Below are positions 1,979 through 59,886 of a stretch of 64,000 nucleotides of DNA, one piece after another. The first letter of the stretch is position 1. Each line of letters begins with the position of its first letter. Below the pieces are notes generated by a model, which worked only from the letters and a program-made list of their open reading frames with translations, ran no database searches and had not been told where the DNA came from. Source of the stretch: Escherichia coli (GTDB lineage Bacteria; Pseudomonadota; Gammaproteobacteria; Enterobacterales; Enterobacteriaceae). A program made the position numbers and the translations under genes. The stretch is from assembly GCF_041886205.1 (NCBI RefSeq), contig NZ_CP169029.1, one strand, 5' to 3'.

Positions 1979-2956
1979 TTATGCCCGGTCAACGCTAAAG
2001 GCGATGACTTCAGCCAGTGTCTCCGCGCCCAGCGCCAACATCACCAGACGATCAACGCCTAATGCCACGCCGGAACAGTCAGGCATACCGACTTTCAAGG
2101 CTTCAATCAGATTCTGGTCAATGGGGTGCTGCGGCAAACCACGCGCCGCTCGCTTACGGTTATCTTGTTCAAAGCGTTGTTGCTGCTCACGGGCATCCGT
2201 CAATTCATGGAAACCATTCGCCAGCTCAATACCTTTATAATAAACCTCAAAGCGTTCAGCGACCCGATGATCTTCGGTACTGATTTGCGCCAGTGATGCC
2301 TGGCTGGCTGGAAAGTGGTACACAAAGGTCGGTTTTTCTTTACCAATATTTGGCTCTACGCCAAAGGTAAACAGCAATTGTAGCAACGTGTCGCGGTCTT
2401 CTTCGGTATCAGCAACGTTGCTCAAATCCAGTTTCGCTGCCACTTCCCGCAGTTGCGTTTTGTCGGCAGAGAGTGGGTCAATTTCCAGATAACGCAAGAA
2501 AGCTTGTTGATAAGAAAGGCTTTCTGCTGCCGGGCAGTCCAGCACCTGTTGTAAGAGATCGTCCACCTCGTTCATCAACCGGTACATATCATAGTGCGGT
2601 CGATACCACTCAAGCATAGTGAACTCAGGGTTGTGATAACGCCCCATCTCTTCATTACGGAAGCTGCGGCACAGCTGGAATACTGGCCCACAACCAGCAA
2701 CCAGCAGGCGTTTCATATGGTATTCAGGGCTGGTCATTAACCAGAGATTCATCCCCTGCGAATGCCCGGGGCCAACGAAACGTGTCTCAAACGGGACCAA
2801 ATGAATATCGGTTACCGTCGCCTGGCTCATACAAGGCGTCTCCACCTCCAGCACTCCACGATCGGCAAAGAAACGACGGATCTCCGCCATAATCGCCGCG
2901 CGTTTTAATAAGTTAGGAATGGATGCGCTCGGCTGCCAGGATGCCGTTTCGCTCAT
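1979..2956 (-). CDS. epmA: EF-P Lys34 beta-lysyltransferase (class II LysRS paralog)
   Basis: 340-aa ORF, 325-aa product from Met [10 protein letters not shown]...; class II aaRS-like motifs; synteny between yjeM and frdA. Confidence 0.9.
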
Positions 2957-3133
2957 AGTTAAATCTCCAGTTTTTGACAAGGGCACGAAGTCTACTCGCA
3001 ACGCGACGGCGAGACAAATTTTACGCAGGAATAAAACAACGGTGGGCAGTGACTAAAAAAAGCACGATCTGATGGTTTAGTAATTAAATTAATCATCTTC
3101 AGTGATAATTTAGCCCTCTTGCGCACTAAAAAA

Positions 3134-3147
3134 ATCGATCTCGTCAA
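3134..3147 (+). promoter_or_regulatory. FNR-type binding site (TCGATctcgTCAAA) upstream of frdA
   Basis: near-palindromic TTGAT-N4-ATCAA-like motif about 135 bp upstream of frdA GTG start; frd is a classical FNR-activated operon. Confidence 0.5.
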
Positions 3148-3280
3148 ATTTCAGACTTATCCATCAGACTATACTGTTGTACCTATAAAGGAGCAGTGGA
3201 ATAGCGTTCGCAGACCGTAACTTTCAGGCACTTACCCTGAAGTACGGGGCTGTGGGATAAAAACAATCTGGAGGAATGTC

Positions 3281-5081
3281 GTGCAAACCTTTCAAGCCGA
3301 TCTTGCCATTGTAGGCGCCGGTGGCGCGGGATTACGTGCTGCAATTGCTGCCGCGCAGGCAAATCCAAATGCAAAAATCGCACTAATCTCAAAAGTATAC
3401 CCGATGCGTAGCCATACCGTTGCTGCAGAAGGGGGCTCCGCCGCTGTCGCGCAGGATCATGACAGCTTCGAATATCACTTTCACGATACAGTAGCGGGTG
3501 GCGACTGGTTGTGTGAGCAGGATGTCGTGGATTATTTCGTCCACCACTGCCCCACCGAAATGACCCAACTGGAACTGTGGGGGTGCCCATGGAGCCGTCG
3601 CCCGGATGGTAGCGTCAACGTACGTCGCTTCGGCGGCATGAAAATCGAGCGTACCTGGTTCGCCGCCGATAAGACCGGCTTCCATATGCTGCACACGCTG
3701 TTCCAGACCTCTCTGCAATTCCCGCAGATCCAGCGTTTTGACGAACATTTCGTGCTGGATATTCTGGTTGATGATGGTCATGTTCGCGGCCTGGTAGCAA
3801 TGAACATGATGGAAGGCACGCTGGTGCAGATCCGTGCTAACGCGGTCGTTATGGCTACCGGCGGTGCGGGTCGCGTTTATCGTTACAACACCAACGGCGG
3901 CATCGTTACCGGTGACGGTATGGGTATGGCGCTAAGCCACGGCGTTCCGCTGCGTGACATGGAATTCGTTCAGTATCACCCAACCGGTCTGCCAGGTTCC
4001 GGTATCCTGATGACCGAAGGCTGCCGTGGTGAAGGCGGTATTCTGGTCAACAAAAATGGCTACCGTTATCTGCAAGATTACGGCATGGGCCCGGAAACTC
4101 CGCTGGGCGAGCCGAAAAACAAATATATGGAACTGGGTCCACGCGACAAAGTTTCTCAGGCCTTCTGGCACGAATGGCGTAAAGGCAACACCATCTCCAC
4201 GCCGCGTGGTGATGTGGTTTATCTCGACCTGCGTCACCTCGGCGAGAAAAAACTGCATGAACGTCTGCCGTTCATCTGCGAACTGGCGAAAGCGTACGTT
4301 GGCGTCGATCCGGTTAAAGAACCGATTCCGGTACGTCCGACCGCACACTACACCATGGGCGGTATCGAAACCGATCAGAACTGTGAAACCCGCATTAAAG
4401 GTCTGTTCGCCGTGGGTGAATGTTCCTCTGTTGGTCTGCACGGTGCAAACCGTCTGGGTTCTAACTCCCTGGCGGAACTGGTGGTCTTCGGCCGTCTGGC
4501 CGGTGAACAAGCGACAGAGCGTGCAGCAACTGCCGGTAATGGCAACGAAGCGGCAATTGAAGCGCAGGCAGCTGGCGTTGAACAACGTCTGAAAGATCTG
4601 GTTAACCAGGATGGCGGCGAAAACTGGGCGAAGATCCGCGACGAAATGGGTCTGGCTATGGAAGAAGGCTGCGGTATCTACCGTACGCCGGAACTGATGC
4701 AGAAAACCATCGACAAGCTGGCAGAGCTGCAGGAACGCTTCAAGCGCGTGCGCATCACCGACACTTCCAGCGTGTTCAACACCGACCTGCTCTACACCAT
4801 TGAACTGGGCCACGGTCTGAACGTTGCTGAATGTATGGCACACTCCGCAATGGCACGTAAAGAGTCCCGCGGCGCACACCAGCGTCTGGACGAAGGTTGC
4901 ACCGAGCGTGACGACGTCAACTTCCTCAAACACACCCTCGCCTTCCGCGATGCTGATGGCACGACTCGCCTGGAGTACAGCGACGTGAAGATTACTACGC
5001 TGCCGCCAGCTAAACGCGTTTACGGTGGCGAAGCGGATGCAGTCGATAAGGCGGAAGCAGCCAATAAGAAGGAGAAGGCGA

Positions 5082-7876: not shown

Positions 7877-8410
7877 ATGCGCCTGCTCCCTCTCGTTGCC
7901 GCAGCGACAGCTGCATTTCTGGTCGTTGCCTGCAGTTCTCCTACGCCGCCGCGTGGCGTGACAGTAGTGAATAATTTCGACGCTAAACGCTATCTCGGTA
8001 CCTGGTATGAGATTGCCCGTTTTGATCACCGTTTTGAACGTGGACTGGAAAAAGTCACCGCAACATACAGTCTGCGTGATGACGGCGGCCTGAATGTCAT
8101 CAATAAAGGCTATAACCCTGACAGAGAAATGTGGCAGCAGAGTGAAGGGAAAGCGTACTTTACCGGCGCACCAACACGCGCTGCGCTGAAAGTGTCATTC
8201 TTTGGTCCTTTCTATGGCGGTTATAACGTCATTGCACTTGATCGGGAATACCGCCATGCGCTGGTTTGCGGCCCGGACCGCGACTACCTGTGGATACTCT
8301 CCCGCATGCCAACCATTTCTGACGAAGTGAAACAGGAGATGCTGGCAGTCGCGACCCGGGAAGGGTTTGATGTCAGTAAGTTTATTTGGGTACAGCAGCC
8401 CGGTAGTTAG
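7877..8410 (+). CDS. blc: outer-membrane lipocalin Blc
   Basis: 177 aa; lipoprotein signal with lipobox (VVAC); lipocalin fold sequence; synteny. Confidence 0.93.
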
Positions 8411-8724
8411 TGAGTGCTGAGTTTCAGACCAATAATCCCCAATACGATTAACGCCAGACTCGCCAGGCGCATCGGGTTAGCGGACTCACCGAGCAGCACA
8501 ATGCCGGTGATAGCCGCGCCGACTGCGCCAATACCCGTCCACACGGCATAAGCCGTCCCTACTGGTAACGATTTCATCGCCCAGGCAAGTAGCGCCATAC
8601 TGACAATCATCGCCGTCACGGTAATAACACTCGGCGTCAAACGACTAAAGCCGTGGGTATATTTCAGGCCAACGGCCCATACCACTTCCAGCAGACCAGC
8701 AATAACTAAGATAATCCAGGACAT
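8407..8724 (-). CDS. gdx: SMR-family guanidinium exporter Gdx (SugE)
   Basis: 105 aa from [14 protein letters not shown]...; four-TM SMR protein; remainder of the 155-aa ORF is leader. Confidence 0.93.
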
Positions 8725-8739
8725 ATCAGGCTCCGGAGA

Positions 8740-8790
8740 ATTGGGGCCGTCCCCGGTGAAAAGACGCGTTTGCAGGTCGTCCTGCAAAGC
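8740..8790 (-). promoter_or_regulatory. guanidine-II (mini-ykkC) riboswitch in gdx 5' leader
   Basis: two hairpins with ACGR tetraloops on the mRNA strand: GCAGG-ACGA-CCTGC (8772-8785) and GGGG-ACGG-CCCC (8743-8754), just upstream of a GGAG SD and the gdx ATG. Confidence 0.7.
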
Positions 8791-18821: not shown

Positions 18822-20123
18822 ATGCTAGTTGTAGAACTCATCATAGTTTTGCTGGCGATCTTCTTGGGCGCCAGATTGGGGGGAATAGGTATTGGTTTTG
18901 CAGGCGGATTGGGGGTGCTGGTTCTTGCCGCTATTGGCGTTAAACCCGGTAACATCCCGTTCGATGTCATTTCCATTATCATGGCGGTTATCGCCGCTAT
19001 TTCTGCCATGCAGGTTGCTGGCGGTCTGGACTATCTGGTTCATCAGACAGAAAAGCTGCTGCGCCGTAACCCGAAATACATCACGATCCTCGCACCTATC
19101 GTGACCTATTTCCTGACAATCTTTGCTGGTACTGGCAACATCTCTCTGGCGACACTGCCAGTTATCGCTGAAGTTGCGAAGGAACAAGGCGTTAAACCTT
19201 GCCGTCCGCTGTCTACTGCAGTGGTATCCGCGCAGATTGCGATCACCGCATCGCCAATCTCAGCGGCAGTGGTTTACATGTCTTCCGTGATGGAAGGTCA
19301 TGGCATCAGCTACCTCCATCTGCTCTCCGTGGTCATCCCGTCCACCCTGCTGGCGGTTCTGGTGATGTCCTTTCTGGTCACTATGCTGTTCAACTCCAAA
19401 CTCTCTGACGATCCGATTTATCGCAAGCGTCTGGAAGAGGGCTTGGTTGAACTGCGCGGTGAAAAGCAGATTGAAATCAAATCCGGTGCAAAAACGTCCG
19501 TTTGGCTGTTCCTGCTGGGCGTAGTTGGCGTGGTTATCTATGCAATCATCAACAGCCCAAGCATGGGTCTGGTTGAAAAACCGCTGATGAACACCACCAA
19601 CGCAATCCTGATCATCATGCTCAGCGTTGCAACTCTGACCACCGTTATCTGTAAAGTCGATACCGACAACATCCTCAACTCCAGCACCTTCAAAGCAGGT
19701 ATGAGCGCCTGTATTTGTATCCTGGGTGTTGCGTGGCTGGGCGATACTTTCGTTTCCAACAACATCGACTGGATCAAAGATACCGCTGGTGAAGTGATTC
19801 AGGGTCATCCGTGGCTGCTGGCCGTCATCTTCTTCTTTGCTTCTGCTCTGCTGTACTCTCAGGCTGCAACCGCAAAAGCACTGATGCCGATGGCTCTGGC
19901 ACTGAACGTTTCTCCGCTGACCGCTGTTGCTTCTTTCGCTGCGGTGTCTGGTCTGTTCATTCTGCCGACCTATCCGACGCTGGTTGCTGCGGTACAGATG
20001 GATGACACGGGTACTACCCGTATCGGTAAATTCGTCTTCAACCATCCGTTCTTCATCCCGGGTACTCTGGGTGTTGCCCTGGCCGTTTGCTTCGGCTTCG
20101 TGCTGGGTAGCTTCATGCTGTAA
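18822..20123 (+). CDS. dcuA: anaerobic C4-dicarboxylate transporter DcuA
   Basis: 433-aa polytopic membrane ORF; synteny after aspA. Confidence 0.95.
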   Translation: MLVVELIIVLLAIFLGARLGGIGIGFAGGLGVLVLAAIGVKPGNIPFDVISIIMAVIAAISAMQVAGGLDYLVHQTEKLLRRNPKYITILAPIVTYFLTIFAGTGNISLATLPVIAEVAKEQGVKPCRPLSTAVVSAQIAITASPISAAVVYMSSVMEGHGISYLHLLSVVIPSTLLAVLVMSFLVTMLFNSKLSDDPIYRKRLEEGLVELRGEKQIEIKSGAKTSVWLFLLGVVGVVIYAIINSPSMGLVEKPLMNTTNAILIIMLSVATLTTVICKVDTDNILNSSTFKAGMSACICILGVAWLGDTFVSNNIDWIKDTAGEVIQGHPWLLAVIFFFASALLYSQAATAKALMPMALALNVSPLTAVASFAAVSGLFILPTYPTLVAAVQMDDTGTTRIGKFVFNHPFFIPGTLGVALAVCFGFVLGSFML

Positions 20124-20238
20124 TGACCAATCGCGGGGCGTTCACGCCCCGCTTTCTTTCCCGCCGACTAACATCCTTCCCCCGTCCGTTGTATAGTGAC
20201 CTCTCTCTTGCGGTTCCATCTGTTCTTGCGAGGTGTTT

Positions 20239-20577
20239 ATGCTTGATGAAAAAAGTTCGAATACCGCGTCTGTCGTGGTGCTATGTACGGCACCAGATGA
20301 AGCGACAGCCCAGGATTTAGCCGCCAAAGTGCTGGCGGAAAAACTGGCGGCCTGCGCGACCTTGATCCCCGGCGCTACCTCTCTCTATTACTGGGAAGGT
20401 AAGCTGGAGCAAGAATACGAAGTGCAGATGATTTTAAAAACTACCGTATCTCACCAGCAGGCACTGCTGGAATGCCTGAAGTCTCATCATCCATATCAAA
20501 CCCCGGAACTTCTGGTTTTACCTGTTACACACGGAGACACAGATTACCTCTCATGGCTCAACGCATCTTTACGCTGA
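20239..20577 (+). CDS. cutA: divalent-cation tolerance protein CutA
   Basis: 112 aa from [11 protein letters not shown]... Confidence 0.93.
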
Positions 20578-22968: not shown

Positions 22969-23044
22969 GCCCGGATAGCTCAGTCGGTAGAGCAGGGGAT
23001 TGAAAATCCCCGTGTCCTTGGTTCGATTCCGAGTCCGGGCACCA
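22969..23044 (+). tRNA. pheU: tRNA-Phe (GAA anticodon)
   Basis: GCCCGGATAGCTCAGTCGGTAGAGCAGGGGATTGAAAATCCCCGTGTCCTTGGTTCGATTCCGAGTCCGGGCACCA; called pheU rather than pheV from yjdC flank. Confidence 0.97.
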
Positions 23045-23241: not shown

Positions 23242-24504
23242 ATGGCACTGACTGACGCAAAAATCCGGGCTGCAAAGCCCACTGACAAGGCTTATAAACT
23301 CACTGACGGGGCTGGCATGTTCCTACTGGTTCATCCTAATGGTTCCCGTTACTGGCGTCTCCGTTATCGTATTCTGGGTAAGGAGAAGACTCTGGCACTT
23401 GGTGTGTATCCAGAAGTTTCTCTCTCCGAAGCTCGTACAAAACGGGATGAGGCCCGAAAACTGATTTCGGAGGGGATTGACCCTTGCGAACTGAAAAGAG
23501 CTAAAAAAGTAGTCCCTGATTTACAACTCTCTTTTGAACATATTGCACGACGCTGGCATGCCAGTAATAAACAATGGGCACAATCACACAGCGATAAAGT
23601 ACTCAAAAGCCTCGAGACACACGTTTTCCCCTTTATCGGCAACCGGGATATCACAACACTCAGTACCCCGGACCTGCTTATCCCTGTTCGTGCTGCAGAA
23701 GCTAAACAAATTTATGAAATCGCCAGTCGTCTGCAGCAAAGAATATCTGCTGTAATGCGTTATGCCGTACAGTCTGGCATCATCAGATATAACCCGGCTC
23801 TGGATATGGCTGGTGCATTGACCACGGTAAAACGCCAGCATCGCCCTGCACTGGATCTTTCACGCCTGCCTGAACTTCTGTCGCGTATTGACGGTTATAA
23901 AGGCCAGCCTGTCACCCGACTGGCAGTTATGCTGAATTTACTGGTTTTTATTCGTTCCAGTGAACTCAGATACGCCCGCTGGTCTGAAATTGATATTGAC
24001 AATGCCATGTGGACTATTCCAGCCGAACGCGAACCTCTGCCTGGCGTAAAATTCTCACACCGGGGCTCCAAGATGCGAACACCACATCTTGTGCCACTCA
24101 GCAAACAGGCTGTAGCCATACTGGCAGAACTACAGACATGGGCTGGTGAAAATGGTCTGATCTTTACGGGAGCACATGACCCGCGTAAACCAATCAGTGA
24201 AAATACTGTAAATAAAGCCCTGAGGGTGATGGGGTATGACACAACCCAGGATGTCTGTGGCCATGGATTCCGGGCGATGGCGTGCAGTGCATTGATTGAA
24301 TCAGGTTTGTGGTCCCGCGATGCTGTGGAACGTCAGATGAGCCATCAGGAGCGTAATGGTGTACGTGCTGCGTATATCCATAAAGCAGAACATCTGGAAG
24401 AACGGCGACTGATGTTGCAATGGTGGGCCGATTTTCTGGATGCGAACCGGGAGAAGGGTATCAGTCCGTTTGAATATGCAAAAATTAACAATCCATTAAA
24501 ATAG
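23242..24504 (+). CDS. P4-family tyrosine integrase, tRNA-Phe associated
   Basis: 441-aa ORF, about 420-aa product from MALTDAKIRAAKPTDKAYKLTDGAG; C-terminal catalytic HGFR ... AAYIH (H-x-x-R / Tyr); immediately 3' of tRNA. Confidence 0.88.
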   Translation: MALTDAKIRAAKPTDKAYKLTDGAGMFLLVHPNGSRYWRLRYRILGKEKTLALGVYPEVSLSEARTKRDEARKLISEGIDPCELKRAKKVVPDLQLSFEHIARRWHASNKQWAQSHSDKVLKSLETHVFPFIGNRDITTLSTPDLLIPVRAAEAKQIYEIASRLQQRISAVMRYAVQSGIIRYNPALDMAGALTTVKRQHRPALDLSRLPELLSRIDGYKGQPVTRLAVMLNLLVFIRSSELRYARWSEIDIDNAMWTIPAEREPLPGVKFSHRGSKMRTPHLVPLSKQAVAILAELQTWAGENGLIFTGAHDPRKPISENTVNKALRVMGYDTTQDVCGHGFRAMACSALIESGLWSRDAVERQMSHQERNGVRAAYIHKAEHLEERRLMLQWWADFLDANREKGISPFEYAKINNPLK

Positions 24505-24590
24505 TAAGCAGTCCGGGCAATCAGCCCGGACTGCTGGTGATGCTGCCAACTTACTGATTTAGTGTATGATGGTGTTTTTGAGGTGCTCCA

Positions 24591-24866
24591 GTGGCTTCTG
24601 TTTCTATCAGCTGTCCCTCCTGTTCAGCTACTGACGGGGTGGTACGTAACGGCAAAAGCACCGCCGGACATCAGCGCTATCTCTGCTCTCACTGCCGTAA
24701 AACATGGCAACTGCAGTTCACTTACACCGCTTCTCAACCCGGTACGCACCAGAAAATCATTGATATGGCCATGAATGGCGTTGGATGCCGGGCAACTGCC
24801 CGCATTATGGGCGTTGGCCTCAACACGATTTTACGTCACTTAAAAAACTCAGGCCGCAGTCGGTAA
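24591..24866 (+). CDS. insA: IS1 InsA
   Basis: 91-aa [20 protein letters not shown]...; zinc-finger/HTH protein of IS1. Confidence 0.95.
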
Positions 24867-25288
24867 CCTCGCGCATACAGCCGGGCAGTGACGTCATCGT
24901 CTGCGCGGAAATGGACGAACAGTGGGGCTATGTCGGGGCTAAATCGCGCCAGCGCTGGCTGTTTTACGCGTATGACAGGCTCCGGAAGACGGTTGTTGCG
25001 CACGTATTCGGTGAACGCACTATGGCGACGCTGGAGCGTCTTCTGGGCCTGCTGTCGGCCTTTGAGGTCGTGGTATGGATGACGGATGGCTGGCCGCTTT
25101 ATGAATCACGCCTGAAGGGAGAACTGCACGTTATCAGCAAGCGATATACGCAGCGCATTGAGCGGCATAACCTGAATCTGAGGCAGCATCTGGCAAGGCT
25201 GGGCAGGAAGTCACTGTCGTTCTCAAAATCGGTGGAGCTGCATGACAAAGTTATCGGGCATTATCTGAACATAAAACACTATCAATAA
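24785..25288 (+). CDS. insB: IS1 InsB (expressed as InsAB' transposase by -1 frameshift)
   Basis: 167-aa ORF in -1 frame relative to insA; matches IS1 InsB. Confidence 0.9.
24840..24848 (+). promoter_or_regulatory. IS1 programmed -1 ribosomal frameshift site (TTAAAAAAC)
   Basis: A6C slippery run at the insA/insB overlap. Confidence 0.8.
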
Positions 25289-25354
25289 GTTGGAGTCATT
25301 ACCCGCTTTGCTTTAGCGAGAACTGGTCTTTTATTCGCACTCAGGAGTACATGT

Positions 25355-26116
25355 ATGAGGATTTGCAGCGACCAACCTTGTATTGTTTTATTGACTGAAA
25401 AAGATGTCTGGATAAGGGTGAATGGGAAAGAACCTATTAGCCTTAAAGCTAACCATATGGCGTTATTAAATTGTGAAAATAATATTATCGACGTCTCCTC
25501 TCTTAACAACACTTTGGTTGCTCATATTAGTCACGACATCATCAAAGATTACCTCCGGTTTCTGAATAAAGATCTCTCGCAAATACCAGTATGGCAACGT
25601 AGCGCTACGCCCATACTCACCCTGCCATGCCTGACGCCAGACGTCTTTCGCGTTGCCGCGCAACACAGCATGATGCCCGCAGAAACTGAGTCAGAAAAGG
25701 AACGAACACGCGCATTATTATTCACGGTGCTATCCCGTTTTCTCGACAGTAAAAAATTCGTTTCATTAATGATGTATATGTTACGTAATTGTGTAAGTGA
25801 CAGCGTTTATCAAATTATTGAAAGCGATATTCACAAAGACTGGAATCTTAGTATGGTAGCCAGTTGTTTATGTCTTAGCCCAAGTCTGTTAAAGAAAAAG
25901 TTGAAAAGCGAAAACACCAGTTATAGCCAAATAATCACCACCTGCCGCATGCGTTATGCCGTAAATGAATTAATGATGGACGGTAAAAATATCTCTCAGG
26001 TATCACAGTCCTGCGGCTACAACAGTACGTCGTACTTTATTTCTGTCTTTAAAGACTTCTACGGTATGACGCCGCTGCATTATGTTAGTCAGCACAGAGA
26101 ACGCACTGTCGCCTGA
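25355..26116 (+). CDS. adiY: AraC-family regulator AdiY
   Basis: 253-aa ORF; C-terminal AraC HTH; immediately upstream of adiC. Confidence 0.92.
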   Translation: MRICSDQPCIVLLTEKDVWIRVNGKEPISLKANHMALLNCENNIIDVSSLNNTLVAHISHDIIKDYLRFLNKDLSQIPVWQRSATPILTLPCLTPDVFRVAAQHSMMPAETESEKERTRALLFTVLSRFLDSKKFVSLMMYMLRNCVSDSVYQIIESDIHKDWNLSMVASCLCLSPSLLKKKLKSENTSYSQIITTCRMRYAVNELMMDGKNISQVSQSCGYNSTSYFISVFKDFYGMTPLHYVSQHRERTVA

Positions 26117-26252
26117 TTTTTAACCTTAACGAAGAGCTATATTAATAACGGCATCAGCGATAACCCGGTCGATAATAATTCAACTATCGAATGCAGGCGT
26201 ATGATATGACGTAATTTATTGTCACGAAGCTCGCCTTCGCAGGAGTTTAATT

Positions 26253-27590
26253 ATGTCTTCGGATGCTGATGCTCACAAAGTGGGCTTAATCCCCGTCACC
26301 CTGATGGTGTCGGGGAATATTATGGGGTCAGGTGTTTTTCTGTTACCTGCAAACCTGGCCTCTACTGGCGGGATTGCCATTTATGGATGGTTGGTGACGA
26401 TTATCGGTGCACTGGGGCTCTCGATGGTATACGCCAAAATGTCGTTCCTCGACCCAAGTCCTGGTGGTTCTTACGCTTACGCCCGCCGCTGCTTTGGCCC
26501 GTTTCTCGGTTATCAAACCAACGTCCTCTACTGGCTGGCCTGCTGGATCGGCAATATCGCCATGGTGGTCATTGGCGTAGGATATTTAAGTTACTTCTTC
26601 CCGATTCTGAAAGATCCATTGGTATTAACCATCACCTGCGTCGTGGTGCTGTGGATCTTCGTCCTGCTGAACATTGTCGGTCCGAAAATGATCACCCGTG
26701 TGCAGGCAGTTGCCACCGTGCTGGCGCTGATCCCCATCGTCGGGATTGCCGTATTTGGCTGGTTCTGGTTCCGTGGTGAAACCTATATGGCGGCATGGAA
26801 CGTCAGCGGCCTGGGCACCTTCGGTGCAATTCAAAGTACCCTTAACGTTACGCTGTGGTCGTTCATCGGTGTGGAAAGTGCCTCCGTTGCCGCAGGTGTG
26901 GTGAAAAACCCGAAACGCAATGTCCCTATCGCCACCATTGGTGGGGTATTGATTGCCGCCGTTTGCTATGTACTTTCTACCACCGCGATTATGGGGATGA
27001 TCCCTAATGCCGCACTGCGCGTTTCTGCTTCGCCATTCGGTGATGCCGCACGGATGGCGTTGGGTGACACCGCCGGGGCCATTGTTTCCTTCTGCGCAGC
27101 TGCGGGTTGCTTAGGTTCACTGGGCGGCTGGACGTTGCTGGCGGGTCAAACGGCGAAAGCCGCTGCCGATGACGGACTGTTCCCACCGATTTTTGCCCGT
27201 GTAAATAAAGCGGGTACGCCAGTGGCGGGGCTGATTATCGTCGGTATTTTGATGACCATCTTCCAGCTCAGCAGCATTTCACCAAACGCGACCAAAGAGT
27301 TCGGTCTGGTTTCTTCCGTCTCGGTCATCTTTACACTGGTGCCATATCTTTACACCTGTGCGGCGTTACTGCTGCTCGGACACGGTCACTTTGGTAAAGC
27401 ACGCCCGGCATATCTGGCAGTTACTACCATTGCCTTCCTCTACTGCATCTGGGCCGTGGTGGGGTCCGGAGCGAAAGAGGTTATGTGGTCATTTGTCACC
27501 CTGATGGTCATCACCGCCATGTATGCGCTGAATTACAACCGGCTACATAAAAACCCGTATCCCTTAGATGCACCAATAAGCAAAGATTAA
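26253..27590 (+). CDS. adiC: arginine:agmatine antiporter AdiC
   Basis: 445-aa APC-family transporter ORF. Confidence 0.95.
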
Positions 27591-27613
27591 TTCCCCTTAA
27601 TCCAGCAAACATA

Positions 27614-27650
27614 AAAGCCAACCTTAAGAACTTAAGGTTGGCTTAATTTT
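27614..27650 (+). terminator. adiC rho-independent terminator
   Basis: palindrome AAAGCCAACCTTAAG-aa-CTTAAGGTTGGCTT followed by AATTTT. Confidence 0.8.
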
Positions 27651-27693
27651 GCTTTGCGAGCATATGCGCACTTTGTTCGATGGAAACACCGTG

Positions 27694-30011: not shown

Positions 30012-31103
30012 ATGCGTTTTCTGCGCCGACCAATATCGCTGCGCCAACGGCTGATATTGACCATCGGGGCCATTTTGTTGGTGTTTGAGCTGATCAGCGT
30101 CTTCTGGCTATGGCATGAAAGTACCGAGCAGATTCAGCTGTTTGAGCAGGCGCTACGCGACAATCGCAACAACGATCGCCACATCATGCGTGAGATCCGC
30201 GAGGCGGTCGCCAGCCTGATTGTCCCCGGCGTCTTTATGGTCAGCCTGACGCTATTTATCTGCTATCAGGCGGTACGCCGCATCACCCGCCCGCTGGCGG
30301 AGCTGCAAAAAGAGCTGGAAGCGCGCACCGCCGACAACTTAACGCCCATTGCCATTCACAGCGCCACCCTCGAAATCGAAGCGGTGGTTTCGGCGTTAAA
30401 CGATCTGGTCAGTCGCCTGACCAGCACGCTGGATAACGAAAGGTTGTTTACCGCTGACGTCGCGCACGAACTGCGAACGCCACTGGCGGGGGTGCGTTTG
30501 CATCTGGAACTGCTGGCGAAAACGCATCACATTGATGTAGCACCGTTAGTGGCACGGCTTGATCAGATGATGGAGAGCGTCTCCCAGCTGCTGCAACTGG
30601 CGCGTGCCGGACAGTCATTTTCTTCCGGTAATTATCAACATGTAAAACTGCTGGAAGATGTCATTCTCCCCTCGTATGACGAACTCAGTACCATGCTCGA
30701 CCAGCGACAGCAAACCCTGCTATTGCCAGAGAGCGCCGCCGACATCACCGTTCAGGGTGATGCAACCCTGCTGCGGATGTTATTGCGAAACCTGGTAGAA
30801 AACGCCCATCGTTACAGCCCGCAAGGCAGCAACATTATGATTAAGCTGCAAGAAGATGACGGAGCGGTCATGGCAGTTGAAGATGAAGGACCAGGTATTG
30901 ATGAGAGTAAATGCGGGGAGTTGAGTAAAGCGTTTGTACGTATGGACAGCCGTTATGGCGGGATTGGTCTGGGGTTAAGTATTGTCAGCCGCATTACACA
31001 GTTGCATCACGGGCAGTTTTTCCTGCAAAACCGGCAAGAGACTTCCGGCACGCGGGCCTGGGTACGGCTGAAGAAAGATCAGTACGTGGCAAACCAGATA
31101 TAA
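30012..31103 (+). CDS. basS: sensor histidine kinase BasS (PmrB)
   Basis: about 363 aa from MRFLRRPISLRQR...; H-box ADVAHELRTP; ATPase domain. Confidence 0.95.
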   Translation: MRFLRRPISLRQRLILTIGAILLVFELISVFWLWHESTEQIQLFEQALRDNRNNDRHIMREIREAVASLIVPGVFMVSLTLFICYQAVRRITRPLAELQKELEARTADNLTPIAIHSATLEIEAVVSALNDLVSRLTSTLDNERLFTADVAHELRTPLAGVRLHLELLAKTHHIDVAPLVARLDQMMESVSQLLQLARAGQSFSSGNYQHVKLLEDVILPSYDELSTMLDQRQQTLLLPESAADITVQGDATLLRMLLRNLVENAHRYSPQGSNIMIKLQEDDGAVMAVEDEGPGIDESKCGELSKAFVRMDSRYGGIGLGLSIVSRITQLHHGQFFLQNRQETSGTRAWVRLKKDQYVANQI

Positions 31104-31168
31104 AGAAAGCTGCTGACCACCAGCACGCTGAACACGGTAGTTAAACTTTCATAAACACGGTTTTTCAT
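31079..31168 (-). CDS. pmrR: small membrane protein PmrR
   Basis: 29-aa ORF MKNRVYESLTTVFSVLVVSSFLYIWFATY, hand-translated, antisense and overlapping the basS 3' end. Confidence 0.75.
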   Translation of the reverse strand: MKNRVYESLTTVFSVLVVSSFLYIWFATY

Positions 31169-31279
31169 TGCACTCTCCTCCGTTAACCTGGAGGAGAGTA
31201 TGCGCGTCAGAGATTAAGTGAACCTTAAGAGTTCAATTGGCCTGATAAGACAGCGTCACATCAGGCCATCCGTTTCAGC

Positions 31280-36899: not shown

Positions 36900-37082
<183 letters not shown>

Positions 37083-38531: not shown

Positions 38532-39548
38532 ATGAACGCTAAGATAATTGCCTCGCTGGCCTTCACCAGCATGTTCAGCCTCAGCACCCTGTTAAGCCCG
38601 GCACACGCCGAAGAGCAGGAAAAGGCGCTGAATTTCGGCATTATTTCAACGGAATCACAGCAAAACCTGAAACCGCAATGGACGCCATTCTTACAGGATA
38701 TGGAGAAGAAGCTGGGCGTGAAGGTGAACGCCTTCTTTGCCCCAGACTACGCAGGCATTATCCAGGGAATGCGCTTCAATAAAGTGGATATCGCCTGGTA
38801 CGGCAACCTGTCGGCAATGGAAGCGGTGGATCGCGCCAACGGCCAGGTCTTCGCTCAGACCGTCGCGGCGGACGGATCGCCGGGTTACTGGAGCGTGTTG
38901 ATCGTCAACAAAGATAGTCCGATCAACAACCTGAACGATCTGCTGGCGAAGCGGAAAGATCTCACCTTCGGCAATGGCGATCCTAACTCCACCTCTGGCT
39001 TCCTCGTCCCCGGTTACTACGTCTTTGCCAAAAACAATATCTCCGCCAGCGACTTCAAGCGCACCGTCAACGCCGGGCATGAAACCAACGCGCTGGCCGT
39101 CGCCAACAAGCAGGTGGATGTTGCCACCAACAACACCGAAAACCTCGACAAGCTGAAAACCTCCGCGCCAGAGAAGCTGAAAGAACTGAAGGTGATCTGG
39201 AAGTCGCCGCTGATCCCAGGCGATCCGATCGTCTGGCGCAAGAATCTTTCCGAAACCACCAAAGACAAGATCTACGACTTCTTTATGAACTACGGCAAAA
39301 CGCCGGAAGAAAAAGCGGTGCTGGAACGCCTGGGCTGGGCGCCATTCCGCGCTTCCAGCGACCTGCAACTGGTGCCGATTCGCCAGCTCGCGCTGTTTAA
39401 AGAGATGCAGGGCGTGAAAAGCAATAAAGGACTGAATGAGCAGGACAAGCTGGCAAAAACCACCGAGATTCAGGCGCAGCTGGATGACCTGGACCGCCTG
39501 AACAACGCGCTAAGCGCGATGAGTTCGGTGAGTAAAGCGGTGCAGTAA
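38532..39548 (+). CDS. phnD: phosphonate ABC transporter periplasmic binding protein
   Basis: 338 aa; signal peptide. Confidence 0.96.
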   Translation: MNAKIIASLAFTSMFSLSTLLSPAHAEEQEKALNFGIISTESQQNLKPQWTPFLQDMEKKLGVKVNAFFAPDYAGIIQGMRFNKVDIAWYGNLSAMEAVDRANGQVFAQTVAADGSPGYWSVLIVNKDSPINNLNDLLAKRKDLTFGNGDPNSTSGFLVPGYYVFAKNNISASDFKRTVNAGHETNALAVANKQVDVATNNTENLDKLKTSAPEKLKELKVIWKSPLIPGDPIVWRKNLSETTKDKIYDFFMNYGKTPEEKAVLERLGWAPFRASSDLQLVPIRQLALFKEMQGVKSNKGLNEQDKLAKTTEIQAQLDDLDRLNNALSAMSSVSKAVQ

Positions 39549-39550
39549 AT

Positions 39551-39640
39551 CGTAGGTCGGATAAGACGCCCCGGCGTCGCATCCGACAATGTGCAGGCGT
39601 TGATGCCGGATGCGGTGCAAGCACCTTATCCGGCCTACAG
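39551..39640. repeat. REP units between phnD and phnE
   Basis: GTAGGTCGGATAAGACGC...GCATCCGACA and GCCGGATGCGG...CTTATCCGGCCTAC. Confidence 0.85.
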
Positions 39641-39653
39641 ACCGGAGCCAAAC

Positions 39654-40433
39654 ATGCAAACCATCACCATCGCCCCACCCAAGCGCAGCTGGTTCTCGCT
39701 TCTGAGCTGGGCCGTTGTTCTCGCCGTGCTGGTCGTCTCGTGGCAGGGCGCGGAAATGGCCCCGCTCACGCTGATTAAAGACGGCGGCAACATGGCAACC
39801 TTCGCTGCCGACTTCTTCCCGCCCGATTTCAGCCAGTGGCAGGATTACCTCACCGAAATGGCCGTCACGCTGCAAATCGCCGTCTGGGGCACCGCGCTGG
39901 CGGTGGTTCTCTCCATCCCCTTTGGCCTGATGAGCGCCGAAAACCTGGTGCCGTGGTGGGTTTACCAGCCCGTTCGCCGCCTGATGGACGCCTGCCGCGC
40001 CATTAACGAAATGGTCTTCGCCATGCTGTTCGTGGTCGCCGTCGGTCTCGGACCGTTCGCTGGCGTGCTGGCGCTATTTATCCACACCACCGGCGTGCTC
40101 TCCAAGCTGCTTTCCGAAGCGGTAGAAGCAATTGAACCTGGCCCGGTGGAAGGCATTCGCGCCACCGGTGCCAACAAGCTCGAAGAGATCCTCTACGGCG
40201 TGCTGCCACAGGTGATGCCACTGCTGATCTCCTACTCCCTCTATCGCTTCGAATCCAACGTCCGCTCGGCGACCGTCGTCGGCATGGTCGGCGCAGGCGG
40301 GATCGGCGTCACCCTGTGGGAAGCGATTCGCGGTTTCCAGTTCCAACAAACCTGCGCCCTGATGGTGCTTATCATCGTCACGGTCAGCCTGCTGGATTTC
40401 CTCTCTCAACGGTTGCGTAAGCACTTTATCTGA
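39654..40433 (+). CDS. phnE: phosphonate ABC transporter permease (uninterrupted reading frame)
   Basis: 259 aa from [17 protein letters not shown]...; polytopic permease; continuous ORF. Confidence 0.88.
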
Positions 40434-40453
40434 TAAGCGAGGCATTGATATCT

Positions 40454-41179
40454 ATGCACTTGTCTACACATCCGACCAGCTACCCAACACGCTATCAAGA
40501 GATAGCCGCAAAACTTGAGCAGGAGCTTCGTCAACACTACCGCTGCGGCGACTATCTTCCCGCCGAGCAGCAACTGGCAGCGCGCTTTGAGGTGAATCGC
40601 CACACCCTGCGCCGCGCCATCGACCAACTGGTGGAAAAAGGCTGGGTACAGCGCCGTCAGGGCGTCGGCGTGCTGGTGCTGATGCGCCCGTTCGATTACC
40701 CGCTCAACGCCCAGGCGCGTTTTAGCCAGAATCTGCTGGATCAGGGCAGCCATCCCACCAGCGAAAAACTGCTTTCGGTATTGCGCCCCGCGTCCGGCCA
40801 CGTCGCTGACGCACTGGGGATTACCGAGGGGGAGAACGTCATCCACCTGCGCACCCTGCGTCGTGTCAACGGCGTCGCGCTCTGTTTAATCGACCACTAC
40901 TTCGCGGACCTCACCCTCTGGCCGACGCTGCAACGCTTCGACAGCGGCTCGCTGCACGATTTTCTGCGCGAGCAAACCGGAATTGCGCTGCGCCGCAGCC
41001 AGACGCGGATCAGCGCCCGCCGCGCCCAGGCCAAAGAGTGCCAGCGTCTTGAAATCCCGAATATGTCGCCGCTGCTGTGCGTGCGCACCCTTAACCACCG
41101 TGACGGTGAAAGCAGCCCGGCGGAGTACTCCGTCAGCCTGACGCGCGCCGACATGATTGAATTCACTATGGAGCACTGA
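40454..41179 (+). CDS. phnF: GntR-family repressor PhnF
   Basis: 241 aa from MHLSTHPTSYPTRYQEIAAKLEQ... Confidence 0.93.
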   Translation: MHLSTHPTSYPTRYQEIAAKLEQELRQHYRCGDYLPAEQQLAARFEVNRHTLRRAIDQLVEKGWVQRRQGVGVLVLMRPFDYPLNAQARFSQNLLDQGSHPTSEKLLSVLRPASGHVADALGITEGENVIHLRTLRRVNGVALCLIDHYFADLTLWPTLQRFDSGSLHDFLREQTGIALRRSQTRISARRAQAKECQRLEIPNMSPLLCVRTLNHRDGESSPAEYSVSLTRADMIEFTMEH

Positions 41180-49076: not shown

Positions 49077-49394
49077 TCAATTTCTCCGCTGCTCTATTGC
49101 CGTAATCGCCTCCACGCGTTGTTGATGACGACCGCCTTCGTACTGTGCGCCCAGCCACGCATCCACAATCATTTTTGCCAGTTCGAGGCCAACCACTCGT
49201 GAACCAAAAGCCAGTGCAACTTCACTGGCGTAATGCGGATAATCAGTGCGCTCTGACGACCTGGTTTCTTTATCAATCCCCTCACTCATTGACCATGAAT
49301 AAAAGGCTGGCACAGCAACACAGAATCCTGCGGTGCCAGCGACATGACCGCCCATTGCTCCGGTACGTTTTTTAATAAAAAACACCGGTTGCAT
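49077..49394 (-). pseudogene. rpiB: rpiB-like remnant (ribose-5-phosphate isomerase B fragment)
   Basis: 105-aa ORF; C-terminal about 60 aa (SSERTDYPHYAS...FGSRVVGLELAKMIVDAWLGAQYEGGRHQQRVEAITAIEQRRN) match my recollection of RpiB; the catalytic-loop segment is missing and the N-terminal 40 aa are unrelated. Confidence 0.6.
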
Positions 49395-49646
49395 TGATTA
49401 ATTGTGCTCAGTATTTGCCGAAGTACAATATATATAATAAATATATAAAACACCTCATATTATTTACAGAGATAATAAATTCGCGTACTTTTCCCTCTTC
49501 AGCACAAATGCCTAATAAAATGGCGCGTTCAGCTCACACTTCCACTTATTAAAGTCGCAATTTCCCAATTATGATAACGCCAGCTTTAAATGACGTATTT
49601 TGCATGGATTACATATTTACGACATAAATGATAAATGGAGATTTAT

Positions 49647-56877: not shown

Positions 56878-59025
56878 ATGAAAAAAGTCGTCACGGTTTG
56901 CCCCTATTGCGCATCAGGTTGCAAAATCAACCTGGTCGTCGATAACGGCAAAATCGTCCGGGCGGAGGCAGCGCAGGGGAAAACCAACCAGGGTACCCTG
57001 TGTCTGAAGGGTTATTATGGCTGGGATTTCATTAACGATACCCAGATCCTGACCCCGCGCCTGAAAACCCCCATGATCCGTCGCCAGCGTGGCGGCAAAC
57101 TCGAACCTGTTTCCTGGGATGAGGCACTGAATTACGTTGCCGAGCGCCTGAGCGCCATCAAAGAGAAGTACGGTCCGGATGCCATCCAGACGACCGGCTC
57201 CTCGCGTGGTACGGGTAACGAAACCAACTATGTAATGCAAAAATTTGCGCGCGCCGTTATTGGTACCAATAACGTTGACTGCTGCGCTCGTGTCTGACAC
57301 GGCCCATCGGTTGCAGGTCTGCACCAATCGGTCGGTAATGGCGCAATGAGCAATGCTATTAACGAAATTGATAATACCGATTTAGTGTTCGTTTTCGGGT
57401 ACAACCCGGCGGATTCCCACCCAATCGTAGCGAATCACGTAATTAACGCTAAACGTAACGGGGCGAAAATTATCGTCTGCGATCCGCGCAAAATTGAAAC
57501 CGCGCGCATTGCTGACATGCACATTGCACTGAAAAACGGCTCGAACATCGCGCTGTTGAATGCGATGGGCCATGTCATTATTGAAGAAAATTTGTACGAC
57601 AAAGCATTCGTCGCTTCCCGTACAGAAGGCTTTGAAGAGTATCGTAAAATCGTTGAAGGCTACACGCCGGAGTCGGTTGAAGATATCACCGGCGTCAGCG
57701 CCAGTGAGATTCGTCAGGCGGCACGGATGTATGCCCAGGCGAAAAGCGCCGCCATCCTGTGGGGCATGGGTGTAACCCAGTTCTACCAGGGCGTGGAAAC
57801 CGTGCGTTCTCTGACCAGCCTCGCGATGCTGACCGGTAACCTCGGTAAGCCACATGCGGGTGTTAACCCGGTTCGTGGTCAGAACAACGTACAGGGTGCC
57901 TGCGATATGGGCGCGCTGCCGGATACGTATCCGGGATACCAGTACGTGAAAGATCCGGCTAACCGCGAGAAATTCGCCAAAGCCTGGGGCGTGGAAAGCC
58001 TGCCAGCGCATACCGGCTATCGCATCAGCGAGCTACCGCACCGCGCAGCGCATGGCGAAGTGCGTGCCGCGTACATTATGGGCGAAGATCCGCTGCAAAC
58101 TGACGCGGAGCTGTCGGCAGTACGTAAAGCCTTTGAAGATCTGGAACTGGTTATCGTTCAGGACATCTTTATGACCAAAACCGCGTCGGCGGCGGATGTT
58201 ATTTTACCGTCAACGTCGTGGGGCGAGCATGAAGGCGTGTTTACTGCGGCTGACCGTGGCTTCCAGCGTTTCTTCAAGGCGGTTGAACCGAAATGGGATC
58301 TGAAAACGGACTGGCAAATCATCAGTGAAATCGCCACCCGTATGGGTTATCCGATGCACTACAACAACACCCAGGAGATCTGGGATGAGTTGCGTCATCT
58401 GTGCCCGGATTTCTACGGTGCGACTTACGAGAAAATGGGCGAACTGGGCTTCATTCAGTGGCCTTGCCGCGATACTTCAGATGCCGATCAGGGGACTTCT
58501 TATCTGTTTAAAGAGAAGTTTGATACCCCGAACGGTCTGGCGCAGTTCTTCACCTGCGACTGGGTAGCGCCAATCGACAAACTCACCGACGAGTACCCGA
58601 TGGTACTGTCAACGGTGCGTGAAGTTGGTCACTACTCTTGCCGTTCGATGACCGGTAACTGTGCGGCACTGGCGGCGCTGGCTGATGAACCTGGCTACGC
58701 ACAAATCAATACCGAAGACGCCAAACGTCTGGGTATTGAAGATGAGGCATTGGTTTGGGTGCACTCGCGTAAAGGCAAAATTATCACCCGTGCGCAGGTC
58801 AGCGATCGTCCGAACAAAGGGGCGATTTACATGACCTACCAGTGGTGGATTGGTGCCTGTAACGAGCTGGTTACCGAAAACTTAAGCCCGATTACGAAAA
58901 CGCCGGAGTACAAATACTGCGCCGTTCGCGTCGAGCCGATCGCCGATCAGCGCGCCGCCGAGCAGTACGTGATTGACGAGTACAACAAGTTGAAAACTCG
59001 CCTGCGCGAAGCGGCACTGGCGTAA
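56878..59025 (+). CDS. fdhF: formate dehydrogenase H (selenoprotein; UGA140 = Sec)
   Basis: 139-aa ORF and 559-aa ORF are in the same frame, separated only by TGA at 57295-57297; N-terminal CPYCASGC Fe-S motif; 715-aa molybdoenzyme. Confidence 0.96.
57295..57340 (+). promoter_or_regulatory. in-frame UGA Sec codon plus SECIS stem-loop of fdhF
   Basis: TGACACGGCCCATCGGTTGCAGGTCTGCACCAATCGGTCGGTAATGGC immediately 3' of UGA. Confidence 0.85.
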
Positions 59026-59808: not shown

Positions 59809-59886
59809 GATAGGCCTGATAAGACGCGTTAAGCGTCGCATCAGGCATTCACACATTGCCGGGTGGATATCCCCGGCAATCTTCAA

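Follow-up and report, generated by a model that had tools for sequence, protein, structure and literature searches.

A 24.5-kb deletion next to pheU, probably mediated by IS1, leaves adiY and adiC without the adjacent adiA in one Escherichia coli strain

Adjacent deletions made by IS1, and deletions that arise by recombination between two IS1 copies, are classical in E. coli. A cadA 'black hole' is said to have been described in Shigella and EIEC by Maurelli et al. in 1998 and by Day et al. in 2001, and the loss of cadCBA removes the lysine-dependent acid-resistance system. Loss of the cad region next to pheU is well known in both groups (PMC4156367). For S. flexneri 5a M90T, a published supplement lists dcuB, fumB, adiA, adiY and yjdE (adiC) among the expressed genes (PMC4229854).

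The arginine-dependent Adi system (AR3) of K-12 is the other relevant precedent. The adiA and adiC promoters are inactive in the absence of AdiY, and the adiY promoter, carried on a 300-bp fragment, is weak; a 200-bp fragment from upstream of adiC gives acid-induced expression that is strictly AdiY-dependent (bioRxiv 10.1101/2025.10.03.680266). The adiY promoter region is bound by H-NS, and in an hns mutant the level of adiY mRNA is five-fold higher. AdiY also binds to the promoters of gltBD and gadABC and, in an hns background, influences glutamate-dependent acid resistance (PMC2984483, for both observations). Loss of adiA abolishes arginine-dependent resistance (PMC12341379).

The locus described here lies on contig NZ_CP169029.1 of E. 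coli GCF_041886205.1, of which we analyzed a stretch of 64 kb on one strand, referred to below as the window. According to the open reading frame list and the raw sequence, the gene order is dcuA, cutA, dsbD, dicD (yjdC), tRNA-Phe, integrase, hairpin, IS1, 51 bp, adiY, adiC, eptA, basR, basS and proP. The EptA variant encoded in the window is very common. The features from the tRNA gene to adiC are as follows.

22969 to 23044, plus strand: tRNA-Phe (GAA) of the pheU locus, found with ARAGORN and the Rfam tRNA family, collinear with K-12 pheU and the presumed attachment site of the island whose integrase gene comes next.
23242 to 24504, plus strand: intact gene for a P4-type tyrosine integrase of 420 aa (PF13356, PF22022, PF00589).
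24507 to 24535, no strand assigned: hairpin with a 12-bp stem, a terminator-like match 3' of the integrase gene, which ends with base 24535, the left junction between deletion and IS1.
24536 to 25303, plus strand: complete IS1 (768 bp) oriented like adiY, with inverted repeats, open reading frames and a frameshift motif.
25304 to 25312, no strand assigned: single remaining copy of the 9-bp IS1 target, CGCTTTGCT, of which strains KFu022 and TOE3 have a copy on either side of IS1.
25304 to 25354, plus strand: 51-bp remnant of the 324-bp adiA-adiY intergenic region, which keeps the Shine-Dalgarno sequence AGGAG and has lost the AT-rich segment.
25355 to 26116, plus strand: adiY, intact, coding for an AraC-type pH-sensing activator of 253 aa, with 0 nucleotide differences from K-12.
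26117 to 26252, plus strand: adiY-adiC intergenic region with the AdiY-dependent adiC promoter, identical to K-12.
26253 to 27590, plus strand: adiC, intact, coding for the arginine:agmatine antiporter of 445 aa, with 0 nucleotide differences from K-12.

The initial annotation had described adiY and adiC as intact, with adiY 51 bp from an IS1 end and its native upstream region replaced by the element, and all of this is borne out. Both genes are full length and match K-12 MG1655 at every nucleotide, the right end of IS1 is at 25303 and the adiY ATG at 25355, and IS1 has cut the upstream region of adiY to 51 of 324 bp. Compared with the K-12 Adi (AR3) system, adiY, the adiC promoter region and adiC are the same base for base, whereas adiA and its promoter are absent from the window, as are 273 bp of the 324 that precede adiY, and thus the proton-consuming step is missing. 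Judged as a complete system, the window contains AdiC, 100% identical to the K-12 protein, and no AdiA; AdiY has its K-12 coding sequence and 51 of its 324 upstream base pairs, and may be without its own promoter. The premise that an arginine-dependent system cannot consume protons without AdiA is established knowledge, recently restated (PMC12341379).

The extent of the change becomes apparent from comparison with K-12, for which three annotated stretches were aligned by BLAST and the genes compared frame by frame. Two blocks are collinear: window 295 to 23158 corresponds to K-12 4385304 to 4362437, and window 25304 to 49214 to K-12 4337980 to 4313662. The breakpoints are therefore window 23158, equal to K-12 4362437, and window 25304, equal to K-12 4337980, and the window lacks the K-12 interval 4337981 to 4362436, or 24,456 bp. 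It has instead 2,145 bp made up of the P4-type integrase gene at pheU and one IS1. About 18 genes are deleted, namely adiA, melR, melA, melB, yjdF, fumB, dcuB, dcuR, dcuS, yjdI, yjdJ, ghoS, ghoT, lysU, dtpC, cadA, cadB, cadC and yjdQ, the last of which is an integrase remnant in K-12. The K-12 adiA interval falls inside this segment, as does most of the 324-bp adiA-adiY spacer (273 bp), including about 120 bp with a GC content of 17-25%. Searches of the 64-kb window by tblastn with the K-12 proteins gave no match for adiA, cadA or cadC, and the sole match for CadB is its paralogue AdiC, at 38% identity. All K-12 reading frames missing from the window lie either in the gap from adiA to yjdQ or in a second gap at the als operon, and no other gene is disrupted in the frame-by-frame comparison. 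The earlier statement that adiA has been lost thus holds in that the gene is absent from its place, but adiA is only one of about 18 genes that left with the 24,456 bp. We consider it likely that one recent, strain-specific, IS1-mediated deletion of 24.5 kb stranded adiY and adiC, and that the pair is now weakly expressed or silent.

The chromosome that carries this deletion has close relatives. E. coli wlxctx60, 6EVA, VE-T9, LHM10-1 and CP52E match the flanks of the window at 99.9-100% identity over 23-24 kb. By local BLAST, wlxctx60 differs from the window at 9 positions in 15,361 bp on the left and at none in 2,803 bp on the right. Relatives at 0-9 mismatches per 15-24 kb keep adiA, and CP52E keeps the whole region. 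The strains that match this backbone come from bear, human and pig faeces, and their records are without a Shigella or EIEC label. As judged from these matches, the backbone appears to be an ordinary E. coli chromosome like those of commensal or environmental strains.

The scar shares with the cadA 'black hole' the loss of cadCBA next to pheU and the presence of an IS element and a P4-type integrase, and the window itself is devoid of cadA and of cadCBA as a whole. It differs in that the backbone is undegraded E. coli and the deletion continues through adiA. We considered the S. flexneri 'black hole' as the same event and rejected it, given that M90T keeps dcuB, fumB, adiA, adiY and adiC, that the backbone is that of ordinary E. 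coli, and that no other gene decay is seen. No further pseudogenes were found in the 64-kb window.

A related possibility is that loss of cadCBA, and with it cadaverine production, was selected as a pathoadaptive change and that adiA was lost as a passenger. The near-identical wlxctx60, a complete genome, has an independent IS-associated deletion at the pheU region in which cadCBA was lost and adiA was kept, as might be expected if such losses were favored. However, the absence of other gene decay in 64 kb, the match of the backbone to faecal strains from bear, human and pig, and the retention in M90T of the five genes named above, which marks that deletion as a different event, all speak against selection of this kind, and with a single genome selection and drift are indistinguishable. 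We regard pathoadaptive loss as unlikely and return to an IS1-mediated deletion, for which the two junctions are informative.

The right junction is a site that IS1 has used before. In strains KFu022, TOE3 and STIN_95, an IS1 has inserted at the very base used in the window and points the same way, and adiA is intact. There the element is surrounded by perfect 9-bp duplications, CGCTTTGCT in KFu022 and TOE3 and CGCTTCGCT in STIN_95. These IS1 copies differ from that of the window by 22, 38 and 50 bases, respectively, and the backbones differ among the three strains, which indicates that the insertions are independent and that the site is a hot spot; it borders the stretch of about 120 bp with 17-25% GC. 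Thus, the 9-bp site 51 bp upstream of adiY is a precise and repeatedly used IS1 target. The alleles of KFu022, TOE3 and STIN_95 match the window in base, orientation and 9-bp target; they keep the left target copy and adiA, whereas the window has lost both and carries a different IS1 variant. Because adiA-positive strains also carry the joint between IS1 and adiY, that joint as such is not tied to the loss of adiA. Other IS1 insertions occur nearby, about 190 bp upstream of adiY in LR-21-1, between adiY and adiC in Ecol_AZ147 and inside adiY in STIN_95.

The element at the joint has the hallmarks of the IS1 family, with a length of 768 bp, imperfect terminal inverted repeats of about 23 bp, and insA and insB' reading frames joined by an A6C motif. 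Its ends are GGTGATGCTGCCAACTTACTGAT and ...ATCAATAAGTTGGAGTCATTACC, and the inverted repeats match at 18 of 23 bases. The insA frame spans 24591-24866, insB' spans 24785-25288, and the A6C frameshift motif is at 24840. The flanks differ, with CGGACTGCT on the left and CGCTTTGCT on the right, so there is no 9-bp target-site duplication of the sort left by a simple insertion. This is expected if the joint was made by deletion or by recombination between two IS1 copies and not by simple insertion.

The sequence of the element is itself unusual. Its identity to an annotated IS1A copy is 97.1%, and 20 of its 22 differences from the IS1A copy of KFu022 fall in bases 500-717. No identical copy exists among about 75,000 IS1 places in 5,426 E. 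coli genomes, where the best match is 99.2%. When the halves were searched separately, the 5' 499 bp proved to be IS1A-like, with a best match of 99.8% and at least 99% identity to 5,707 records, and the 3' 269 bp to be a rare variant, with a best match of 99.6% and at least 99% identity to 62 records. Neither half has a perfect match. This pattern suggests that the element is a mosaic or recombinant, and it fits a chimera without proving it.

The left junction is given by the integrase gene. It is 100% identical at the nucleotide level to the integrase of the pheU island of E. coli ZYB39, and this identity ends exactly at base 24535. After the hairpin, ZYB39 continues with AT-rich island DNA where the window has IS1. 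The exact integrase protein is encoded on 20 contigs, at pheU or pheV. All of these contigs that extend past the gene run into AT-rich island DNA, their identity to the window likewise ending at 24535, and none of the 20 has an IS1 junction after the identical integrase. The island cargo of ZYB39 and the other contigs is absent from the window, in which IS1 follows the integrase hairpin directly; the integrase gene would be all that is left of a pheU island. The joint of integrase and IS1 was not found in 5,426 complete E. coli genomes, in species-representative genomes or in JGI metagenomes, and the arrangement of integrase, IS1 and adiY occurs in none of the 5,426 genomes. Likewise, our searches returned no precursor genome with the island integrase and an IS1 at either junction. 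The left junction rests on a single observation.

These features raise the question of an assembly artefact, in which two direct IS1 copies, one behind the integrase gene and one at the adiY hot spot, would have been wrongly joined; the island and the segment from adiA to cadC that lay between them would then have been collapsed or placed on another contig. The length of the junction is that of exactly one IS1 and a target duplication is lacking, the element has no matching copy elsewhere and resembles a mixture of two variants, as a consensus drawn from several copies could, and the arrangement is found nowhere else. However, a contig that continues for no less than 64 kb through IS1 points to long-read or finished data, and real IS1 deletions yield exactly such a structure. 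Moreover, the complete genome of wlxctx60 provides a second, independent IS-associated deletion at the pheU region. An artefact therefore seems to us quite improbable, and we interpret the joint as a genuine deletion.

The window has the features that define an IS-mediated deletion, with flanks collinear with those of relatives, the intervening segment absent and the IS exactly at the joint. As in classical IS1 deletions, a complete IS1 occupies a novel joint without a target duplication, one flank is unchanged and the DNA between is lost, and both endpoints are at borders between AT-rich and GC-richer DNA. The locus differs from the classical cases only in its strain-specific endpoints and in the gene content lost. 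The anatomy of the deletion, its recency and the repeated use of the target are shown; the order of events we infer. The right endpoint would be the outer end of an IS1 at the preferred target CGCTTTGCT, 51 bp upstream of adiY, and the left endpoint would lie directly after the terminator hairpin of the pheU-island integrase gene. Between these endpoints, the rest of the island and 24,456 bp of core chromosome would have been lost. The deletion might have been formed by intramolecular IS1 transposition, as an adjacent deletion, or by recombination between a pair of IS1 copies in direct orientation that occupied the two sites. The apparent mosaic structure of the element may slightly favor recombination between IS1 copies, but the route is not settled, because both give the same product and a mosaic IS1 also arises by gene conversion.

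The deletion is young. Window 25304-27693, a stretch of 2,390 bp that begins at the IS1 end and stops just before eptA, is identical to K-12, and the AdiY protein is WP_001217060.1, as in adiA-positive strains. Since adiY, adiC and their spacers carry no substitution relative either to K-12 or to adiA-positive relatives, the dN/dS comparison proposed in the initial annotation is undefined and offers no measure of the relaxed selection suggested there, and the lack of substitutions indicates that the deletion is recent and has left no time for decay. Retention of adiY and adiC needs no selection, since the pair lies just outside the IS1 end and has accumulated no changes. Among the lost genes, adiA is close to universal in the species, as it is present at no less than 80% coverage in 5407 of 5426 complete E. 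coli genomes (99.6%); adiY-adiC is present in 5411, and the pair occurs without a full adiA in at most about 4 of the 5,426. The genotype is rare, and the mechanism is ordinary IS1 biology.

What remains of the Adi system is probably weakly expressed or silent, because the AT-rich promoter region of adiY that H-NS binds is gone and the adiC promoter depends on AdiY. Neither the 51 bp nor the joint of IS1 and adiY yielded a promoter in a consensus scan, although the same scan also misses the native adiY promoter of K-12 and so counts for little. No intrinsic terminator was found between IS1 and adiY on the adiY strand, and because the two have the same direction, low-level read-through is possible. 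Thus, adiY and adiC are probably silent or show low expression that comes from IS1 by read-through.

The initial annotation also raised the possibility that adiC has been repurposed. We found nothing to support this, and the pair, with 0 substitutions relative to K-12, is most simply read as a remnant that has had too little time to decay. More broadly, the pair might be kept for another role, such as exchange by AdiC of arginine and of agmatine made by the biosynthetic decarboxylase SpeA or action of AdiY on gad and gltBD, with IS1 providing new expression. Such a role would draw on the binding of AdiY to the gltBD and gadABC promoters (PMC2984483), on the removal by IS1 of the H-NS-bound region upstream of adiY and on the repeated insertion of IS1 at the same site. 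However, retention without a single substitution since the event calls for no selection, the pair is outside the deletion simply because the IS1 end sets the endpoint, and the combination with an incomplete or missing adiA is confined to the few genomes counted above. The scan of the junction also gave no promoter-like site, with the reservation about native K-12 already stated. A new role for the pair is in our estimation very unlikely. The same low standing applies to the fuller proposal of a recurrent IS1 'switch' upstream of adiY that rewires AdiY, by relieving its silencing or by shutting it off, combined with an adiA-independent role of AdiY and AdiC in SpeA-dependent agmatine/arginine exchange or in gad and gltBD control; that the remnant is functional in this manner is highly improbable. 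A recent IS1-mediated deletion that left the pair behind remains our preferred reading.

From its gene content, the strain is predicted to have lost the acid resistance that depends on arginine and on lysine, melibiose use and the anaerobic C4-dicarboxylate functions of DcuSR, DcuB and FumB. The findings reveal no new kind of system, and no new role for adiC or adiY is shown. If the deletion is real, a single IS1 event would have produced a strain that lacks two inducible amino-acid decarboxylase acid-resistance systems, Adi and Cad, together with melibiose use and DcuSR, DcuB and FumB. The strain would then be a natural multi-gene knockout, and it would illustrate that one IS1 can remove near-core genes such as adiA.

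The IS1 element that lies between the integrase gene of the pheU island and adiY is bordered by the following two 9-bp sequences.

24527-24535, left flank, CGGACTGCT
25304-25312, right flank, CGCTTTGCT

These two sequences have 6 of 9 bases in common (CG...TGCT), and each is located where AT-rich DNA meets DNA that is richer in GC. Both the likeness of the flanks and their position at such borders may reflect a target preference of IS1, or alternatively may have arisen by chance. Elsewhere in the species, IS elements recur in the adiA-adiY-adiC intergenic regions and within adiY itself in many genomes. IS1 occupies at least four positions across the adi loci of other E. coli (L001, L002, L020, L032 and L033), and ISVsa5 and IS903B are likewise found at this locus. 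All five of the IS-bearing adi loci that were inspected keep adiA, and only 15 of 5,426 complete E. coli genomes overall have no adiA match.

The closest relative of the window, wlxctx60 (NZ_AP045833.1), carries its own deletion beside pheU (19000-20400), which is independent of that in the window. This strain has lost cadCBA and retains lysU through adiA. Its yjdQ remnant holds a distant IS1-family element, adjoining a dtpC gene that is truncated at the 5' end, and this element has no blastn match to the window IS1 at E ≤ 1e-10.

Several other differences from K-12 are evident in the window. K-12 positions 4306823-4313661 (the als operon, alsRBACEK, and part of rpiB) are absent at 49215-49422, where 208 bp have no K-12 match. 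The same gap in wlxctx60, in which a 318-bp rpiB-like ORF adjoins yjcS, indicates that the absence of als and part of rpiB is a trait of the lineage, unconnected to the IS1 event. At 59811-59849, the gltP-yjcO spacer lacks approximately 525 bp that are present in K-12, and the spacer of wlxctx60 is likewise short (78 bp only). Positions 1-294, which lie past the end of yjeM, match wlxctx60 but nothing in the K-12 segment used for comparison. The yjeN-yjeO region of K-12 is probably different in this lineage.

Rfam searches identified the following features, the last three as ordinary matches.

36903-37079 and 39555-39635, three naRNA4 (REP-type) repeats
31072-31237, sRNA STnc630, between basS and proP
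8742-8788, guanidine-II riboswitch, upstream of sugE/gdx
57290-57344, fdhF SECIS element

K-12 has more copies of the repeat than the array at 36900-37079, and this difference gives rise to overlapping BLAST matches to that genome.

Three other E. coli strains lack melB, with yjdF directly adjoining melA.

wlxctx60 (L018), 8086-8736, melB absent
CP52E (L019), 39087-41089, melB absent
STIN_95 (L020), 2321-4323, melB absent

Because melB is missing from all three, this gene may already have been absent from the ancestor of the window strain.
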